21,258 nucleotides of DNA from a virus (lineage: Duplodnaviria; Heunggongvirae; Uroviricota; Caudoviricetes): the IMG/VR virus record IMGVR_UViG_2778261303_000012, positions 1 to 21,258 of that record. The stretch is one strand, 5' to 3'. The position numbers were made by a program, and so were the translations under genes. The notes below the pieces were generated by a model. The model saw only the letters and a program-made list of their open reading frames with translations, was not told where the DNA came from and ran no database searches. Positions within the stretch are counted from its first letter, which is position 1. Each line of letters begins with the position of its first letter. Below are positions 1,320 through 11,198 of this stretch, piece by piece.

Positions 1320-2624
1320 GCTGAGGGATCCCATAAATCAGCGCTAATAAACCAACACCATATTCTGGTAGGTTTTGGCGAGATGATTAAGAACTGTGCT
1401 CAGCACTGTTCGCCTTAAAATTAGCGGGGAGTGTCGTAAAACATTCTCCGCTAACGTCAGATACGAGATTACCCGCCGTGTTTTAATGCTGTTGGCCTGA
1501 TATCTCAGATGTAATCCTTTGTTTTCAGCATGATAGCCAATAAGCCACTGTACAATTGTACTCAGCGTCGCCAGTAGGTTCAGTACCAGCATTCTTCCCA
1601 CTGAACGACTGTAACTGTCACGCAGAGCGAACCCGAAGCGCTCGCTTTTTTCATCCCGGAAGTTCTGCTCGATTTGCATGCGACGGCTGTACAATTTCAT
1701 GATTTCCCGGGCTTTAAAGGCTACTGCTAAAGATAAGCCACGGTTCTTTTTCCGAAGAACGTCAATCATTATTTGGGATTTACGCTCTATGCGGCAACGT
1801 GAACGGCGATTCTTCCGGTCTTTCGGCTCTTTTTTATGTAAATAAAAATGGCCATCACACCGGGCATATTCCGAACGGGCAAGTGTACTCGTCCCCAGAT
1901 ATTCTGGTTTGCTTCTGGCCTGTAATTCCTGACGCCTGAACCAGTACTCACCTTTGCTGTCCAGCTGCATCTGGATATTTCCCCTGACACGACCGATAAA
2001 ATCCCATCCGAGTGACCTTATATGCCGGAACCATGCACTCTGGAAACCCGCATCGGTAACTATTATGACTCTGGCCACAGGGTTTACAGCCTCGGCAAGG
2101 GCATCCAGGAAGTTTTTTTGTATCTGCTAGTTCTGCTGTTTTTCTGACGGGACTATCCAGATTAACAGGGGAAGCGAGCGTCCATCGCAGAGCAGGCTGG
2201 CTCGGAGCACATGATGTTCCTGAGATGGATATCCACTCCAGTCAACGGCGATGACACAAAGAGATAGCTGGCTAGTCAGAATGGCAATAATATTTCTGAA
2301 AATCAGTGGGATATCGCGGTGAAGAGATTCATTACCGAGCAGTCGGTCAACGCGTTCGATTTTATTTCTGACCTGAGCCGGGCCAGGTAAATAACGCCCG
2401 ATGCTGGTCAGCGTCAGTGATGCGCCATTGATGAGAGCGATGGTGGCATCCAGCAAAGCATTTTGTCGGTATTTATGAAACGGTGCTAACGCATCGTGGA
2501 AAAAATTCTGACATACTTGTCGAGCAGACATAGAAGTGATCTCATTGATTGGTTGCACAAATCAGTAGATCACAAAACTCTATGACTGTCTTTTTTACCC
2601 GCCAATTACTGGGGATTCCTCAGC
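1320..2624 (-). mobile_element. IS4-family (IS10-like) insertion sequence, about 1.3 kb
   Basis: Imperfect terminal inverted repeats: left end CTGAGGGATCCCA at 1321, right end GGGGATTCCTCAG at 2611..2623 (reverse complement CTGAGGAATCCCC), resembling IS10 ends as recalled. A 10–11 bp direct repeat (c)gcctattggc flanks the element at 1309..1319 and 2624..2634, consistent with a target-site duplication. The internal ORFs align to IS10 transposase from memory (e.g. YS+RMQIE, DAGF, IDRLLGN motifs). Confidence 0.8.
1344..2558 (-). pseudogene. IS10-like transposase interrupted by a single in-frame TAG
   Basis: ORFs 2127..2558 (143 aa, N-terminal part) and 1344..2078 (244 aa, C-terminal part) are in the same frame. 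The only break is an amber codon (cta on plus strand at 2127..2129). The 16 codons between them translate to QIQKNFLDALAEAVNP, which continues the IS10 transposase alignment; total length about 403 codons, matching a ~402-aa IS10-type transposase. Confidence 0.8.
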
Positions 2625-2867: not shown

Positions 2868-3617
2868 ATGCTCATTCCAACATCTCTATCAAAACAACCA
2901 GTAATCGAAGCTGCTTTCGAAATGCGTTTTTCTAAAGAAACACAAATATCGGAAATAGTTCCAGGGTTTCTTTTTCACGCTCTAGGTTGTACAAAACCAG
3001 TAATTAGTTTACCACCCAGTCAAATACCTAAAAATGTTCGTGAGGGAGATGAACAATTACATTACGCAGTTGTCAGTCGCCTCGAAATCGAAGGGTACTA
3101 TATTGGACTAAGTGACCATGGTGTTGTTGTATCCACCAGCACCAAATATCAAGGGTGGAGTCATTTTAGAGAAAAAATCATTCATGTATTAAATGAGCTT
3201 AACAAATTAAATTTAAATGACAACATCATCCGCTACTCATTAAAGTATGTAGATTTTTTCCCAAAAGAAGACGATTCTAATTTATTTGATAAGCTAAACG
3301 TCAGCTTAAATATGGCTGGCGAGTCTATGTCTAATTATCCGATCAATATCAGAATCGATAAAAATGAAGGCGCATTTCTAAATATAATTCAAATATTATC
3401 TCATGCTTTAGTCATGTCAGATAATGGAGAATTTAATAAAAAAGGACTAATCCTAGACATAGACAGTATTAGGCAAATCACTAATACTGATGAAATAGAT
3501 AAGTTTAAAAACGAACCCAAAAAAATTCTTGATGATCTTCACTCCTGTAATAAATTAGCTTTCTTTAGTTGCCTTAAAGAGTCAACAATTCAAGAACTAG
3601 AACCATCCTACAAATAG
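2868..3617 (+). CDS. hypothetical protein, cassette gene A (249 aa)
   Basis: Long ORF, first gene of a three-gene AT-rich operon. No catalytic motif recognised. An unverified recollection of TIGR04255-like proteins is too weak to use as a call. RBS is weak and an alternative downstream start is possible. Confidence 0.6.
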   Translation: MLIPTSLSKQPVIEAAFEMRFSKETQISEIVPGFLFHALGCTKPVISLPPSQIPKNVREGDEQLHYAVVSRLEIEGYYIGLSDHGVVVSTSTKYQGWSHFREKIIHVLNELNKLNLNDNIIRYSLKYVDFFPKEDDSNLFDKLNVSLNMAGESMSNYPINIRIDKNEGAFLNIIQILSHALVMSDNGEFNKKGLILDIDSIRQITNTDEIDKFKNEPKKILDDLHSCNKLAFFSCLKESTIQELEPSYK

Positions 3618-3632
3618 AAATGGTGGTATGAT

Positions 3633-3977
3633 ATGTATCCGTCTCATCATGTTTATCGAGCTCAACTTCAAGTATTAACTTTGGTTTTATATGGTCTGCA
3701 TATAACAGCATTAACAGACATTGCCCAAAATCAACAGCATGGTCCTCAACAAAGTTTAATCGTCAAAAATCACGCTTTGGAGTATAAGTCTTCAACTACC
3801 GATTCAGTTCATTCCATCACACAAACATATAAAGCAGGGAGCACAATCTCAGTTGATCAAAGACTTGCAGTCTCGATGACAAACTTTTATGAAAAATTAT
3901 CAACAAACCAGGTGTCTTTAGGCAGTGAAATAAATAAAGTCGTTCATGCTTCACTGTGGGATTTATACTTGGATTAA
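3633..3977 (+). CDS. hypothetical protein, cassette gene B (114 aa)
   Basis: ORF 15 nt after gene A stop, same strand and AT-rich composition; a GGTGG-like Shine-Dalgarno precedes the ATG. No family recognised. Confidence 0.5.
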   Translation: MYPSHHVYRAQLQVLTLVLYGLHITALTDIAQNQQHGPQQSLIVKNHALEYKSSTTDSVHSITQTYKAGSTISVDQRLAVSMTNFYEKLSTNQVSLGSEINKVVHASLWDLYLD

Positions 3978-3980
3978 GTG

Positions 3981-4595
3981 ATGAGTAATAACATTTTTGA
4001 TATCGAGAAATTCAAAGATCAAATTCCATATTATTTAACAGCTCCTCAAAAAGAAGGGCTAATAAATGCACTTAGAGATTTCCCTGAAAACACTAACTAC
4101 TACCTTACCAATTATCATGATGATCTGAAAAATGCTGCACTTCAGGGAGATATATTTAAGGAGCTTACAGTATATTCAATTAAAGGGACTAAAAAAACAC
4201 GAGGAATTATATTAAGCAACAGTTGCGATATAGATACAAGTAATAATCGTGATGTGCCAATGCGTGCAGTCTTTGCTCCGTTAGTAAGTTTATCTAAGTT
4301 CGAAGCTATTCTTCTCTCCAACGGAGTTTCTAAGACTTCAATAGATAGCAAAATTGATGCTATAAGGAAGCAGTTAATTACTAATATTTTTTATCTTCCT
4401 GAATCAGACAACTTAGAAGAATGCATCGTTTTTCTTGATGATGTATACCAATTACCAACGGAAGAATTACAAAAACTCTTGAATGATAAATGCAAAGCCA
4501 TAACTTTAAGTCAAGTTGGTTTCTACATTTTACTATTCAAAATATCTATTCACTTTTGTAGATTCCATGAAAACATACAACGATTCGATCATTAA
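3981..4595 (+). CDS. hypothetical protein, cassette gene C (204 aa)
   Basis: ATG at 3981 directly follows gene B stop (TAA 3975..3977; a GTG at 3978 is an alternative start), suggesting translational coupling. Followed immediately by a terminator hairpin. No family recognised. Confidence 0.55.
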   Translation: MSNNIFDIEKFKDQIPYYLTAPQKEGLINALRDFPENTNYYLTNYHDDLKNAALQGDIFKELTVYSIKGTKKTRGIILSNSCDIDTSNNRDVPMRAVFAPLVSLSKFEAILLSNGVSKTSIDSKIDAIRKQLITNIFYLPESDNLEECIVFLDDVYQLPTEELQKLLNDKCKAITLSQVGFYILLFKISIHFCRFHENIQRFDH

Positions 4596-6809: not shown

Positions 6810-7199
6810 TCAGGCGGCTGCACCCGCCGTTTTCTCGTACTTACTGATAGTGATCTCGACCTTCCCTTTCGGGATAACCGGTCCCCACTCCACCAGCATT
6901 CTTTTCACCTGACTGTCGTCTTCCCACACACCCGCGTGGGTCAGGGCGTCAAACAGCGCCTTGTTATAGTTGTCCAGATCGCGGATCCGGTTATCCGGAG
7001 GAAACAACACGATCTCCACTGAAGCAGGTGCCGACGTTGGTTTCGGCAGACGACGTAACTGCTCAACTATTGCTGCGCACGCCGCGCTCTGGAATTTTCG
7101 CCCCGCCGAGCTTATCAGGCTCTTACCAGCAAACGCCCCTTTGTTGGGGTGTCGCCAGTACGTGTTCACGCTGGGCGGAAAAGGCAGGATCAGCTTCAT
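6810..7199 (-). CDS. rusA: RusA-family Holliday junction resolvase
   Basis: 129 aa. LILPFPPSVNTYWRH...DLDNYNKALFDALTHAGVWEDDSQV matches the RusA signature (PPS.N.Y, DxDN, D-rich C-terminal half). ATGA overlap with the upstream gene. Confidence 0.85.
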   Translation of the reverse strand: MKLILPFPPSVNTYWRHPNKGAFAGKSLISSAGRKFQSAACAAIVEQLRRLPKPTSAPASVEIVLFPPDNRIRDLDNYNKALFDALTHAGVWEDDSQVKRMLVEWGPVIPKGKVEITISKYEKTAGAAA

Positions 7200-7522
7200 A
7201 CTTTCAGGTCCCTCTCATGTAACCAGTGGGTTGCACGCAGCCTTGCGTTTTCCTCACCGGCAAGCAGTGCGCGGATAATCCCGACCGCCTCGCTGTCGTC
7301 GTCCTTCACCGCGGTATGAAGCGTTATCCACCGGGCCACGCCACGCTTTATCGTGATGACGCCTTTTTTCTCCAGTGCGCGAAGATGCTCCACCGCTGCA
7401 TTCACTGAACGGTATCCCAGCATGGTTGCCACCTCCTGATTGGTTGGCGGGAAGCCACGTTCTTTCTGATAAGAAATCAGCATATCCAACACCTGCTGCT
7501 GGCATTGAGTTAACGTCGTCAT
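7196..7522 (-). CDS. LexA N-terminal DNA-binding-domain-only protein (winged HTH), no peptidase domain
   Basis: 108 aa. LTQCQQQVLDMLISYQKERGFPPTNQEVATMLGYRSVNAAVEHLRALEKKGVITIKRG closely follows the LexA DNA-binding domain pattern; the ORF ends before any S24 domain. ATGA overlaps at both ends. Confidence 0.6.
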   Translation of the reverse strand: MTTLTQCQQQVLDMLISYQKERGFPPTNQEVATMLGYRSVNAAVEHLRALEKKGVITIKRGVARWITLHTAVKDDDSEAVGIIRALLAGEENARLRATHWLHERDLKV

Positions 7523-8172
7523 GCCGCCATCTCCCTGACCAGTTTTTCCGCCTGCTGGCGAACCTGCGCCAGAAACGCCTCACCACATGCCTCAAGTTCA
7601 TCGCGCCCGATGTAGCTGATTGCCGGTCCCTTCCAGGTCTTGTCAAAAACAGCAATAGCACCAGCGAAAAAAGCTCCTGTCGGCACCTGCTTCTCGTCCT
7701 TCGGGATAAACCAGGCAGGCAGTTCAAAACCAATACGCCCGCGAATAAAAGCAATATGGTCCGCATCTTCCGGCCACCACACTTCGCTGGTGGCAGCTTT
7801 GATCAGGAAAACATAGCGCCCGCCCTTATCACGCATGGCACTGGCATGTTTCATGATGTAACGCATGCCGGTGATGTATTGCCCCTCATGCTGACTGGCG
7901 CGGCTGTATGGAGGATTACCAAAGGCAGCACCTTTAAGCTCCGCAAGACGTTCTGACCAGTCATGCGCCAGCGCGTTGTCTTCCGCCGTGTAATACGCGG
8001 CACATTTGGCGTTATCACCGTCAGTGAACAGATCCAGAACAAACGGACCAAACAGGGTGTTAATTCCCCAGAAAATGTTGTCCGGCGTGCGCCACTGATC
8101 GCCCACTTCCTTCAGTTCATGGGCTGGTTTGTTCCGCAGTTCCACCAGCGCCTGGCAATATTTATTACTCAT
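7519..8172 (-). CDS. phage Dam-type DNA N6-adenine methyltransferase
   Basis: 217 aa with FGNPPYSR (NPPY catalytic motif IV) and overall resemblance to phage Dam-family (PF05869-like) enzymes. ATGA overlap with upstream gene. Confidence 0.8.
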   Translation of the reverse strand: MSNKYCQALVELRNKPAHELKEVGDQWRTPDNIFWGINTLFGPFVLDLFTDGDNAKCAAYYTAEDNALAHDWSERLAELKGAAFGNPPYSRASQHEGQYITGMRYIMKHASAMRDKGGRYVFLIKAATSEVWWPEDADHIAFIRGRIGFELPAWFIPKDEKQVPTGAFFAGAIAVFDKTWKGPAISYIGRDELEACGEAFLAQVRQQAEKLVREMAA

Positions 8173-8660
8173 TCAGCCCCCACGTAATTCCCTGACAGAT
8201 ACCACTCTTCACCCGATGCAGAGCGCTTGCTGCTTTGCCGTAAGCACCGCTCACGACGCGCCAGAAAATTGTTTCGTTCTGGCTGGGAGTGGCTTTCACG
8301 GAATGCCGCCATCCACACCGTTGCGGCACGACGGTATAAGCCCCTGGACTCCAGTTCTTCCGCCTGGCGGGTCAGGCACAAAATCACCCGGGGATCGTTA
8401 GTGCCGACATAGAAATTGCGCACAGGTCTGGTTTCACGAACTGGTTGTGGTTCCGGCTCCTGCGCTCTCTCAGTCAGGCGTGGGAAATGTCTGCGTGTAT
8501 CTCCTTCACAACGGTGAGCCACACGCCCACTCTGACGTAACTTGCTTGCTGACTGCAGAACGCGCTGCCGTGAGTAACCTGCAAAAACATCCGCAATGTC
8601 TCCGGAAGTACACCCCGGATGGGCTTCAATGAATTTCTGAACTTCATTCAAAAGACTCAT
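8169..8660 (-). CDS. PerC-domain transcriptional regulator with N-terminal extension
   Basis: C-terminal AEELESRGLYRRAATVWMAAF...ARRERCLRQ matches the PerC/Pch signature (GLW/YRRAA..W ... RR.YC). Start placed at ATG 8660 with GGGGG RBS; a GTG at 8666 is the alternative. Confidence 0.55.
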   Translation of the reverse strand: MSLLNEVQKFIEAHPGCTSGDIADVFAGYSRQRVLQSASKLRQSGRVAHRCEGDTRRHFPRLTERAQEPEPQPVRETRPVRNFYVGTNDPRVILCLTRQAEELESRGLYRRAATVWMAAFRESHSQPERNNFLARRERCLRQSSKRSASGEEWYLSGNYVGAE

Positions 8661-8662
8661 GA

Positions 8663-9481
8663 TCACCCCCTGAATCCTGCCGGGATCTGGCTGTAGTCCA
8701 CGTTGTCGTAACTGGCTTTGAAGTACGTGTCCTCGCGTCTGGCTGCAGATACCGCAGGAACTTCCCAGGATTCTTCGAAATGACGATCTGGACCAAAGAA
8801 CGTGACAGCCTGTTTCACAAATTGTGTGCCGCTATTGCCCATCGCAGATACCCAGCCCGCGTAGCGTTTCACACCTTCCAGCATGGTTTCGGGGTTTACC
8901 CCCTCGTTCAAACGGGCTTTCCAGACTTTGAAGGCTGCAGATTTTGAATTGCCACCAGCACGTTTGGGATATGCCAGCCATGCCTGCTCAAACTCCGGAG
9001 AGTATTCCGGTCGGTTTGAACGAACTAGCACGGACTCATCAACTGATGCACCAACAGCTATTGGTTCATTGACTGGTTCTTTGACTGGTTCAAAAGAGTG
9101 ACTGGTTCTGGGTGAATCTCCTGCACTACCCCCTGGTGCAACTCCTGCACTACCTGGTGAATTTGCTGCACCAGATAGTGAATTATTTGCACTACCCCCT
9201 AGTGAATCTCCTGCACCATCCAGATGAAGGAGATAGATATTACTTGAGTTACCTTTTTCACCTTTCCGGGTGACTTTTTTTACCAGCCCGGACTCACAGA
9301 GGGCCGCAATATGATTCATCACAGAACGTTTGCTAATCTCGCACTGATCAGCGATATGCTGATAGCTGGGCCAGCACTCGCCCTGATCGCTGGCATTATC
9401 AGCCAGCTTAATCAGAACCAGTTTTCGCAATGGATTTCCCACTCGAATTTTCATCGCTTTAACCATCAGCTCCATACTCAT
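8663..9481 (-). CDS. phage replication initiator-like protein (N-terminal wHTH, low-complexity linker, C-terminal domain)
   Basis: 272 aa, GGAGG RBS. N-terminal HTH-like region (KLVLIKLADNASDQGECWPSYQHIADQCEISKRSVMNHIAAL); central Gly/Ser/Ala-rich linker encoded by tandem DNA repeats; position between Rha and the downstream early genes is typical of a lambdoid replication module. No P/DnaC-like partner gene seen. Confidence 0.65.
   Translation of the reverse strand: MSMELMVKAMKIRVGNPLRKLVLIKLADNASDQGECWPSYQHIADQCEISKRSVMNHIAALCESGLVKKVTRKGEKGNSSNIYLLHLDGAGDSLGGSANNSLSGAANSPGSAGVAPGGSAGDSPRTSHSFEPVKEPVNEPIAVGASVDESVLVRSNRPEYSPEFEQAWLAYPKRAGGNSKSAAFKVWKARLNEGVNPETMLEGVKRYAGWVSAMGNSGTQFVKQAVTFFGPDRHFEESWEVPAVSAARREDTYFKASYDNVDYSQIPAGFRG
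9068..9225. repeat. iteron-like imperfect direct repeats inside the replication gene (candidate ori)
   Basis: GACTGGTTC repeated three times (about 9071, 9083, 9100), then four copies of (a/g)GTGAAT(c/t)T..(c/t)TGCAC (about 9110, 9165, 9177, 9201), plus repeated CTCCTGCACTACC; an AT-richer stretch follows at 9225..9285. Confidence 0.5.
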
Positions 9482-9702
9482 GCAGCACCTCCGAGATGCT
9501 TCATGTTTTTTCCGGAGCGAAAGGCTATAAGCGGCATACTGACGCGGTAACTACGGCCCAGCGGTTCACAAATCACCTTCTGACATTCACGGTCAACCAG
9601 GCTAACACGTAGAACATGCCCTTCAGGTGTGGTGTACCACTGACCCGGACGAGGACAACGGAAAGTCTGATTGGTAAACCGTTTGAAAATATTCCGGATC
9701 AT
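9478..9702 (-). CDS. hypothetical 74-aa protein, translationally coupled between rha and the replication gene
   Basis: ATGA overlaps at both ends (Rha stop / its ATG at 9699..9702; its stop / replication-gene ATG at 9478..9481). Contains a CxxxP...C pattern; no family recognised. Confidence 0.5.
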   Translation of the reverse strand: MIRNIFKRFTNQTFRCPRPGQWYTTPEGHVLRVSLVDRECQKVICEPLGRSYRVSMPLIAFRSGKNMKHLGGAA

Positions 9703-10256
9703 TTGCGCCCCCTTACCTCTGAAGGGTTCAGCAACAAATTTATGAGGCAGGCCAGTGCCGAAGCATCATTAATATAGTCATACAAGCTAACAGCCAGCGG
9801 AGATTCGGCTTTTGCCAACATAGGATAAAGCTGCTGCAGCCAGACCTGATGAATTGATGAAATGTAGGAATAGAGAACGCTGGCGTTATGTGCAACGTCG
9901 CTCAGTACAGAGGGCTTTGAAAGCTGTTTCTCCATCTGGTTAAAGGCATTGATGTATGCCTCTTTGAACTGGGCAGCACGTTTACCCGTGAAACCCATAG
10001 CAAGAAACGCAAAGCCGTCGCGAGTGATTTGATAGCAAGGAAGCTTGCGTGTACCACCGTTCGGTTGATTTACCGAAATAGATGTCTCCGCAAAATTGCG
10101 GGCACAAAACTCAGGGGAACAATCCAGAGTACGGATCTTTTTCAGCACATCGTCGTGACGCTTGGAGAAGAAGTTTGCAACAGCTAAAGAAGTGGTAACG
10201 GCTTGGCCGTTGTCAATGGTGATTTCAGGTTGAGTAAGGGCTGGGATCGTAGCCAT
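9699..10256 (-). CDS. Rha-family phage regulatory protein
   Basis: Start set at ATG 10256 (GGAGG RBS 8 nt upstream), giving 185 aa: MATIPALTQPEITIDNGQAVTTSLAVANFFSKRHDDVLKKIRTL...GTRKLPCYQITRDGFAFLAMGFTGKRAAQFKEAYINAF is the Phage_pRha signature. The 499-aa ORF in the track is a read-through artefact. Confidence 0.8.
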   Translation of the reverse strand: MATIPALTQPEITIDNGQAVTTSLAVANFFSKRHDDVLKKIRTLDCSPEFCARNFAETSISVNQPNGGTRKLPCYQITRDGFAFLAMGFTGKRAAQFKEAYINAFNQMEKQLSKPSVLSDVAHNASVLYSYISSIHQVWLQQLYPMLAKAESPLAVSLYDYINDASALACLINLLLNPSEVRGRK

Positions 10257-10586
10257 GATGGCAGCCTCCGTTGACAGTGAAAAACTTCCACCACCGGAAA
10301 CGCCAATTTCACTGGTGGTGAACTGGACGGGGTTGGCGTAACCGGCGTCAACGGAGACCGGCGCACCTTTCGGTGCCCCCGTCCAGCCCACCATAATCTG
10401 GATGTGAACAAATGCGGACGATAAAAAAGACGCTGGCGCGTCATACATCGCCGTTGACAATTTCAGGACGCCAATCCCGGCACCTGATTTTTCAGGTGCT
10501 GAAGCAGTGTATACTCGAAATAAATCATGATCAATAATGATGCGAGGATGGGGGTTAACCGTTATCTCAAAATAAGGAGATACAAC

Positions 10587-10928
10587 GTGAGATACCAACT
10601 TTTGGCTAACAGCAGCAGAGGTGATGGTTTTTACGATGTAACCATCAGCGATAATAGCGGCAACCTCGAAATAGAATGCACTTGTATGGCTGGTGAAATG
10701 GGTACAATGTGTAAGCACCGTATTGCCGTTATTACAGGAAAATATGGAAATATCATAGATATTGATGATCCTGAAAACGCCGATGCAAAACTGGCAACCG
10801 ACCTGATTGCTAAATATGGAATTACAGAGCAATACCTTGCTCTTGCTAAAGAACTCGAAGACCTGAAAAAGAGGTTCAAGGTTGAAGAAAAGGCTATCAA
10901 ACTGAGAATTAATGCCTTGGCAGGGTAA
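10587..10928 (+). CDS. small SWIM-type zinc-finger protein, antisense moron within the early operon
   Basis: Start at GTG 10587 preceded by AAGGAG with 7-nt spacing; 113 aa. Contains CTCMAGEMGTMCKHRIAV, i.e. CxC-x9-CKHxxAV, the canonical SWIM zinc-finger pattern. Lower GC than flanking genes and opposite orientation. Confidence 0.6.
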   Translation: MRYQLLANSSRGDGFYDVTISDNSGNLEIECTCMAGEMGTMCKHRIAVITGKYGNIIDIDDPENADAKLATDLIAKYGITEQYLALAKELEDLKKRFKVEEKAIKLRINALAG

Positions 10929-10965
10929 GCTCTCAGTTAAAATTTGTTTCATTTGGTTAGCTCTC

Positions 10966-11198
10966 ATCCTTCCCCTTACGGCAGAAGAGTTCAGTAAAGA
11001 ATTGATTAAACCAGCAAGCGCCGCTGCGTCATTGATGCGGTCATAAAGGCAATTCAGGCCCACAGTCAGGTAAAATTCTCTGTGGTTAATTACAGCCAGG
11101 TGATTTAGTAATCTGCATTCATGCCGTAACAACAGATGTTCAGAGACGCAGACCACCAGCTGTTGCGACAAACGGTTATTTGCCGTTAAACTGTTCAT
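10966..11198 (-). other. short ORF / relic resembling the 3' end of rha, translationally coupled to the CII-like gene
   Basis: ATG at 11198 overlaps the CII-like stop (ATGA). Encoded ...LYDRINDAAALAGLINSLLNSSAVRGR parallels the Rha C-terminus ...LYDYINDASALACLINLLLNPSEVRGRK, and the DNA at 10967..11060 is about 70% similar to 9705..9800. The reading frame then runs open across the antisense of the SWIM gene, so its true end is unclear. Confidence 0.35.

Follow-up and report, generated by a model that had tools for sequence, protein, structure and literature searches.

A yfdN-type PerC-family gene in the early operon of an SfV/mEp460-like lambdoid prophage, predicted to encode a winged helix joined to a PerC/ANR-type domain

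The window that we analysed, a 21,258-nucleotide stretch of viral DNA (IMG/VR record IMGVR_UViG_2778261303_000012), carries on its minus strand a yfdN-type coding sequence (8169..8660) of 163 amino acids that, by the ORF list and the sequence, runs from an ATG at 8660 to a TGA at 8169-8171. A GTG at 8666, in frame and two codons 5' of this ATG, is an alternative start, and RefSeq begins the identical gene of Escherichia coli RM8082 at the GTG corresponding to 8666. Reading the sequence upstream of the ATG, we find a Shine-Dalgarno sequence, AGGGGG (8666-8671, within 8661..8671, minus strand), 5 nt before the start codon, and the TGA of the upstream replication gene (8663-8665) falls between the two. 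At the other end, an ATGA (8169..8172, minus strand) joins the yfdN stop to the start codon of a Dam methyltransferase, as seen in both the sequence and the ORF list. Stop and start signals thus overlap at both ends of yfdN, and the gene is translationally coupled to the upstream replication gene and the downstream Dam methylase.

The earlier note on this DNA had placed the gene in the early operon, rightly: it lies within the rightward early operon, whose minus-strand order is a cro-like gene, a CII/CP76-like gene, an Ash and Rha domain gene, a 74-aa ORF, the replication protein, yfdN and Dam, continuing with a protein carrying a LexA DNA-binding domain (LexA-DBD), RusA, KilA-N, DUF968 and Q. 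A cI-like repressor gene is divergent from the operon. The upstream neighbour (8663..9481, minus strand) is an HTH_36/DnaD_N-like replication protein of the SfV orf39 type (Pfam HTH_36 E=1.8e-11), named 'replication protein' in mEp460, and the downstream neighbour (7519..8172, minus strand) is a phage N-6-adenine methyltransferase of the Dam family (Pfam Dam E=1e-45). We found no promoter-like or terminator-like site adjoining yfdN on its strand, and its GC content (0.55) is the same as that of its neighbours; it is therefore a gene of the pR operon and not a moron. In sum, yfdN belongs to the delayed-early genes of an SfV/mEp460-like lambdoid prophage.

Several other features lie nearby. A 499-aa ORF (9699-11198, minus strand) has its Ash and Rha domains in the C-terminal part only (residues 230-424), and a 133-aa SWIM zinc-finger ORF on the plus strand (10527-10928) overlaps its N-terminal part in a low-GC patch (0.41-0.43) whose GC skew is reversed. 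The SWIM ORF resembles an insertion of a small antisense gene in the early operon, and the long start of the 499-aa ORF is therefore probably spurious; RefSeq annotates the counterparts of the two ORFs as separate genes in RM8082. The LexA-DBD protein (7196-7522, minus strand; 108 aa) consists of this DNA-binding domain alone, with no protease domain, and adjoins RusA in all SfV/mEp460-type relatives examined, even at 22-30% YfdN identity; it could be an SOS-box competitor. Downstream of Q, three plus-strand ORFs of 249, 114 and 205 aa (2868-4595) gave no Pfam match, the first being a TIGR04255 family protein in RefSeq, and an IS4-type transposase fragment (1344-2078, minus strand) adjoins them. 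Together they may form a cassette, of moron or defence-like type, in the interval from Q to the lysis genes. In the RM8082 prophage, an 'enterotoxin A family protein' gene (L001 21679-22470, just past window position 1) lies downstream of Q, in the position that the Stx genes occupy in Stx phages, and RM8082 has been reported to have an eltA homologue and no eltB (PMC9729726).

Judged from its sequence, the gene is an ortholog of E. coli yfdN, of the SfV orf40/mEp460 gp44 type. Its DNA is 100% identical to that of RM8082 yfdN, for which the RefSeq name is 'PerC family transcriptional regulator', and the window as a whole is closest to the RM8082 prophage (91% covered, 98.9% identity). When the 492-nt gene was compared by megablast with 5,426 complete E. 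coli genomes, RM8082 was the only one with a 100% match, and yfdN DNA was present in 2,668, usually as a single chromosomal copy; RefSeq labels the matched genes 'yfdN: PerC family transcriptional regulator'. Among phages, those of SfV/mEp460 type and some Stx2-converting ones carry homologous DNA, with 97-98% identical genes in mEp460, Ayreon, Shigella phages and Stx2c-, Stx2a- and Stx2k-converting phages. At the protein level, the product is 96% identical over 162 residues to K-12 YfdN (b2357, from the cryptic prophage CPS-53) and matches the PHROGs family phrog_1324 ('transcriptional activator') over its full length (residues 1-162 against positions 15-167 of 172, E=6.7e-77). The K-12 gene has already been termed 'the K12 unique PerC homologue' (PMC5931665). 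Its product is still annotated, in EcoCyc style, as an 'uncharacterized protein', and we found no experiment on YfdN function in the literature. Gene, family assignment and distribution are all already in public annotation, which makes the finding an ordinary one.

The earlier note had assigned the product to the PerC family from two motifs and had suggested a search with the PerC profile. The motifs are present as quoted (GLYRRAATVW at residues 107-116, RRERC at residues 135-139), and the profile search gave an above-threshold match: residues 98-149 align with positions 5-56 of the 90-position Pfam PerC model (PF06069) at 35.9 bits against a gathering cut-off of 22.6 (E=9e-9). With a score above this cut-off, the match is no chance event, and the ORF at 8169-8660 is real. 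The corresponding segment is a PerC/ANR-like helical core (residues 93-145; 8226..8384, minus strand) with the motif A..LE..G.YRRAA..W ... R.....C. In an alignment of this core with EPEC PerC, PchE and short homologues, no variation is seen at the A, L, R, A and C, and almost none at the E, G, R, A, W and R. Identity, counted in the core only, is 29% to EPEC PerC over 56 residues (its sequence taken from pMAR2 by annotation) and 38% to PchE over 52, and a tblastn search of plasmids with the C-terminal domain did not reach EPEC perC at E<=1e-3.

The NCBIfam ANR model (NF033650) also aligns with the core almost end to end (positions 5-52 of 54, E=2e-5), at 24.1 bits and hence below its cut-off of 32. 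AF2 predicts core helices at residues 90-105, 109-122 and 126-149 with pLDDT of about 90, and the C-terminal helices superpose very closely on the predicted structure of an Aeromonas phage protein of 60 aa, named 'ANR family transcriptional regulator' (TMt 0.93, rmsd 0.6 Å, 57 columns), a comparison of one predicted model with another. The near full-length, sub-threshold ANR match agrees with this superposition. A profile search of the PDB found no solved PerC or ANR structure. Beyond the core, a C-terminal tail (residues 146-163; 8172..8225, minus strand), predicted by AF2 to be disordered, carries the YfdN-clade motif W-Y-L-S-G-N-Y-V-G in place of the PerC/Pch type of tail (F/Y-x-D/G-L/I-K/R ... 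M-G-I/L ...). Of 21 distant long forms, at least 19 keep its L155, G157 and G161. Short homologues come in two kinds: PerC/Pch-like proteins with a '...MGI...' tail, and YfdN-like C-terminal domains that lack the winged helix described next.

The N-terminal part (residues 1-60; 8481..8660, minus strand) is predicted to be a winged helix, with three helices followed by a beta hairpin (helices at 3-13, 19-25 and 31-44, strands at 47-52 and 55-60; pLDDT 85-92). The model, built from 19 homologues, has a mean pLDDT of 77.6, and its N-terminal topology (H-H-H-beta-beta, pLDDT ~90) includes a recognition helix and a wing. Foldseek searches of the PDB with residues 1-60 returned ArsR/SmtB, MarR/SlyA/MepR, MecI, DsrD, RPA32C and Z-alpha structures at rmsd 1.7-2.9 Å over 55-69 residues, with weak E-values of 0.005-0.1. 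Since the model is made up of two small domains, no Foldseek E-value against the PDB or BFVD was as low as 1e-3, and we took these matches for fold class only. A profile of 26 long forms matched only winged-helix chains in the PDB, namely BlaI (E=0.002), MarR, PapI (2htj, E=0.007) and RPA32C. The MarR-type phrog_1687 was matched by 20 of the 26 long forms (E=3.5e-4 for the query, sub-threshold), and Pfam Penicillinase_R and MarR_2 gave sub-threshold matches in a minority of the long homologues. Some winged helices, RPA32C for example, bind proteins instead of DNA; DNA binding by this domain is a prediction from the model. Between the two folded parts lies a linker (residues 61-92; 8385..8480, minus strand) that varies in length and is predicted to be disordered (pLDDT <50 at residues 63-84).

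The earlier note had counted 70 extra N-terminal residues and called the extension unusual for the family; on both points our results differ. The part before the PerC core comes to ~93 residues, a 60-residue fold plus a linker of ~30, and the long form is standard in the YfdN clade, as seen in the full-length phrog_1324 match, the 2,668 of 5,426 genomes and at least 20 clusters. With the last 73 residues as query, a HMMER search of 1.84 billion representatives gave 62 clusters; in about 20 of them the proteins are 138-161 aa long and the matched stretch lies at the C-terminus. The winged helix, linker and PerC core are shared by at least 20 divergent clusters (50% identity). These long forms begin with MS(L/I)...V..FI..NPG.T..EIA... 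and continue through a variable linker and the core to a W.L(A/S)G.(Y/F)(V)G tail, and all 26 of 26 match both Pfam PerC and phrog_1324. The distant members share 22-49% identity with the query; among them, pairwise identity averages 25% in the winged helix, 8% in the linker, 37% in the PerC core and 33% in the tail, a pattern that points to two constrained domains and a free linker. The modelled protein shows the same layout, with two predicted folded parts, a winged helix and a three-helix PerC/ANR-type domain with its clade-specific tail, on a variable disordered linker.

Gene order in relatives bears on what such a protein might do. In the window, mEp460, a Stx2k phage and distant homologues (22-48% identical), yfdN comes directly behind the replication gene or genes. 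A related-locus search with 9 sequences, in a collection of one genome per species, gave 7 loci. The distant long forms overlap a preceding HTH_36/Phg_2220_C initiator gene by 4 nt and are followed by a DNA methylase (Dam, D12 or MT-A70), LexA-DBD, RusA, DUF968 and Q. Such a position would suit a replication accessory of the SfV-type module, for instance a partner of the HTH_36/Phg_2220_C initiator that replaces lambda P or DnaC; most relatives have the gene directly after the initiator with the overlap, and we saw no P, DnaC or DnaB-type gene in the window's operon. We consider this role unlikely, however, given that one homologue (L019) comes after a lambda P gene, another (L014) lies directly upstream of Q, behind a type I methylase/specificity pair and far from replication genes, the initiator before a third (L011) differs in size (353 aa) and N-terminal sequence, and YfdN has neither an ATPase nor a known loader fold. 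More doubtful still, and in our estimate very improbable, is that YfdN controls the neighbouring DNA methyltransferase or works together with it, in the manner of a C protein or of a PapI-like factor at methylation-sensitive sites. The overlap of the methyltransferase start with the yfdN stop, the presence as next gene in relatives of a methyltransferase belonging to one of three unrelated families (Dam, D12 or MT-A70) and the weak profile match of the N-terminal domain to PapI would fit such a role, but in the Shigella flexneri and Citrobacter loci (L008, L011) no methyltransferase follows the homologue, and its adjacency elsewhere may just reflect the conserved order of the nin region. What stays constant among homologues is a place between the replication module and Q, usually right after the replication gene or genes; there is no fixed partnership with one initiator or with the methylase. 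Because the neighbours vary among homologues, we set aside the helicase-loader and methylase-controller roles. As a separate observation, the slot after yfdN (window 7519-8172) is a replacement hot spot for the unrelated Dam, MethyltransfD12 and MT-A70 families, sometimes with an extra C5 methylase (loci compared: L017, L020, L022, L024 and L019). Five database entries (P0021, P0025, P0035, P0061 and P0107) fuse YfdN with Dam, RusA or HTH_36, and these are probably frameshift or gene-calling artefacts that stem from the overlapping stop and start codons.

The first place after the replication genes is also the map position of lambda ren, which raises the idea of a Ren-like exclusion or anti-exclusion protein. 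The 'Ren-like' family phrog_142 was matched by 10 of the 26 long forms (best E 8e-4; E=0.013 for the query protein), and hhalign aligned the family with lambda Ren over 59 columns (E=1e-3). Yet the hhalign probability was just 20%, generic MarR-type winged-helix families score higher, Ren has no PerC domain, and BLASTP of lambda Ren against YfdN found nothing, so that a Ren-like function has, in our view, hardly any chance of being correct. With BLASTP nil and the profile comparison merely suggestive, Ren homology was rejected as a firm claim. The remaining alternative is the one raised in the earlier note, in which YfdN is a Pch-like prophage regulator that activates the LEE or other host virulence loci and ties the prophage to pathogenicity. 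In its favour are membership of the PerC family, the occurrence of the same gene on Stx2c-, Stx2a- and Stx2k-converting phages of LEE-positive lineages, and the removal, as a precaution, of K-12 yfdN from a ler::lacZ reporter strain by Uhlich et al. (PMC5931665). Distribution argues the other way. The earlier note had suggested checking the host for a LEE, and the closest host, RM8082 (O121:H7), is reported to lack it (PMC9729726). The LEE ATPase gene escN is present in 697 of the 5,426 complete E. coli genomes compared with 2,668 for yfdN; therefore, at least 1,971 carriers (74%) have no LEE, and K-12 is itself a carrier without one. In K-12, a yfdN carrier, the EHEC LEE1 promoter stays silent unless pch is supplied (PMC4764244), although this is weak evidence, since the yfdN of a cryptic prophage may be unexpressed. 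Among family members, ler is activated by PerC and PchA/B/C only, with no effect of PchD and a less than 2-fold effect of PchE (PMC5931665); PchE represses curli and alters flagella (PMC6265319, PMC7369912), and a PerC-like protein of a PICI silences or represses LEE1 (PMC11773190). PerC-family membership therefore does not predict LEE activation. In addition, YfdN lacks the C-terminal tail of the PerC/Pch type, and the gene, within the pR operon and without its own promoter, is missing the moron features of a host regulator expressed in lysogeny. In a limited literature collection, we found no published test of YfdN on the LEE1/ler promoter. Because yfdN sits on some Stx2 phages of LEE-positive strains, a LEE effect is conceivable there, although nothing here supports it. 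With carriers mostly lacking the LEE and family members differing in tests, the proposed prophage-to-host virulence link did not gain support; a LEE link is unlikely, and we infer that YfdN is not a dedicated LEE activator.

The explanation that we prefer, and to which we assign a probability of about one-half, is that the yfdN ortholog is an early-operon gene whose product would act in lytic growth as a DNA-tethered modulator of the PerC/ANR type. The winged helix, if it binds DNA as predicted, would place YfdN on DNA. By analogy with its relatives, the PerC/ANR-type domain may then disturb nucleoprotein complexes of the H-NS family or bind other regulators, and transcription would be changed at the time when pR is active, following induction or infection. 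Action of YfdN from a repressed prophage is probably not to be expected. Among the relatives, Pch occupies DNA and displaces H-NS/StpA, with H-NS displaced at LEE1, yet has no recognizable DNA-binding domain, and the same study did not find direct contact between Pch and H-NS (PMC4764244); for ANR proteins, the binding partners are H-NS, Ler and AraC-type regulators (PMC10148876). A connection of YfdN to H-NS would thus be an extrapolation from proteins 29-38% identical to it in a core of ~55 residues. Going further, and more tentatively, we can imagine that YfdN-type proteins are a functionally distinct clade in which a built-in winged helix tethers a PerC/ANR-type protein-interaction module to DNA, serving SfV/mEp460-type phages, including some Stx2 phages, for counter-silencing of the H-NS family or hijacking of regulators in lytic growth. 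If true, this would give a gene found in about half of E. coli genomes a role in the phage life cycle and not in virulence.

Although the discovery value of the locus is small, YfdN is very common and yet uncharacterized, and two points extend beyond it. A 'PerC family' label does not amount to 'LEE activator', since most carriers lack the LEE and family members behave differently. In addition, the layout of a winged helix combined with a PerC/ANR-type domain suggests a clear and testable way in which small regulators of this kind could be brought to DNA.

Compared with known systems, the N-terminal domain resembles the MarR/ArsR/BlaI winged helices, PapI/FaeA and lambda Ren in the predicted fold of residues 1-60 and in weak family matches; it reaches the threshold of no winged-helix family and, unlike MarR, has no dimerization helix. 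EPEC PerC (89 aa), which shares the core motif and the PF06069 match, has neither winged helix nor linker and ends in a ...KKMGL... tail; it is borne on the plasmid pMAR2 in the perABC operon and is a proven activator of LEE1. The EHEC proteins PchA/B/C and PchE have the same PerC core and, like YfdN, are carried on prophages or phage-like elements, but they are single-domain proteins of 90-104 aa with a PerC-type tail and no N-terminal winged helix. PchA/B/C activate ler and displace H-NS, whereas PchE represses curli and affects flagella. Taken together, the PerC/Pch activators of the LEE are single-domain proteins of ~89-104 aa, in contrast to the 163 aa of YfdN with its winged helix and linker. 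ANR proteins (Aar, Rnr; NF033650) are alike in a three-helix domain of ~55-60 residues, although YfdN scores below the family cut-off; they consist of a single domain (4-9.5 kDa) and work purely through protein-protein contacts, with AraC-type regulators and H-NS as partners (PMC10148876). The nearest counterparts are K-12 YfdN, SfV orf40 and mEp460 gp44, with 96% identity and the same flanking genes. In K-12 CPS-53 these neighbours have decayed, yfdO being the remnant of the replication protein upstream and yfdM that of the methylase downstream; the protein of the window differs from K-12 YfdN by a few substitutions and one extra C-terminal residue, and its prophage region is intact.
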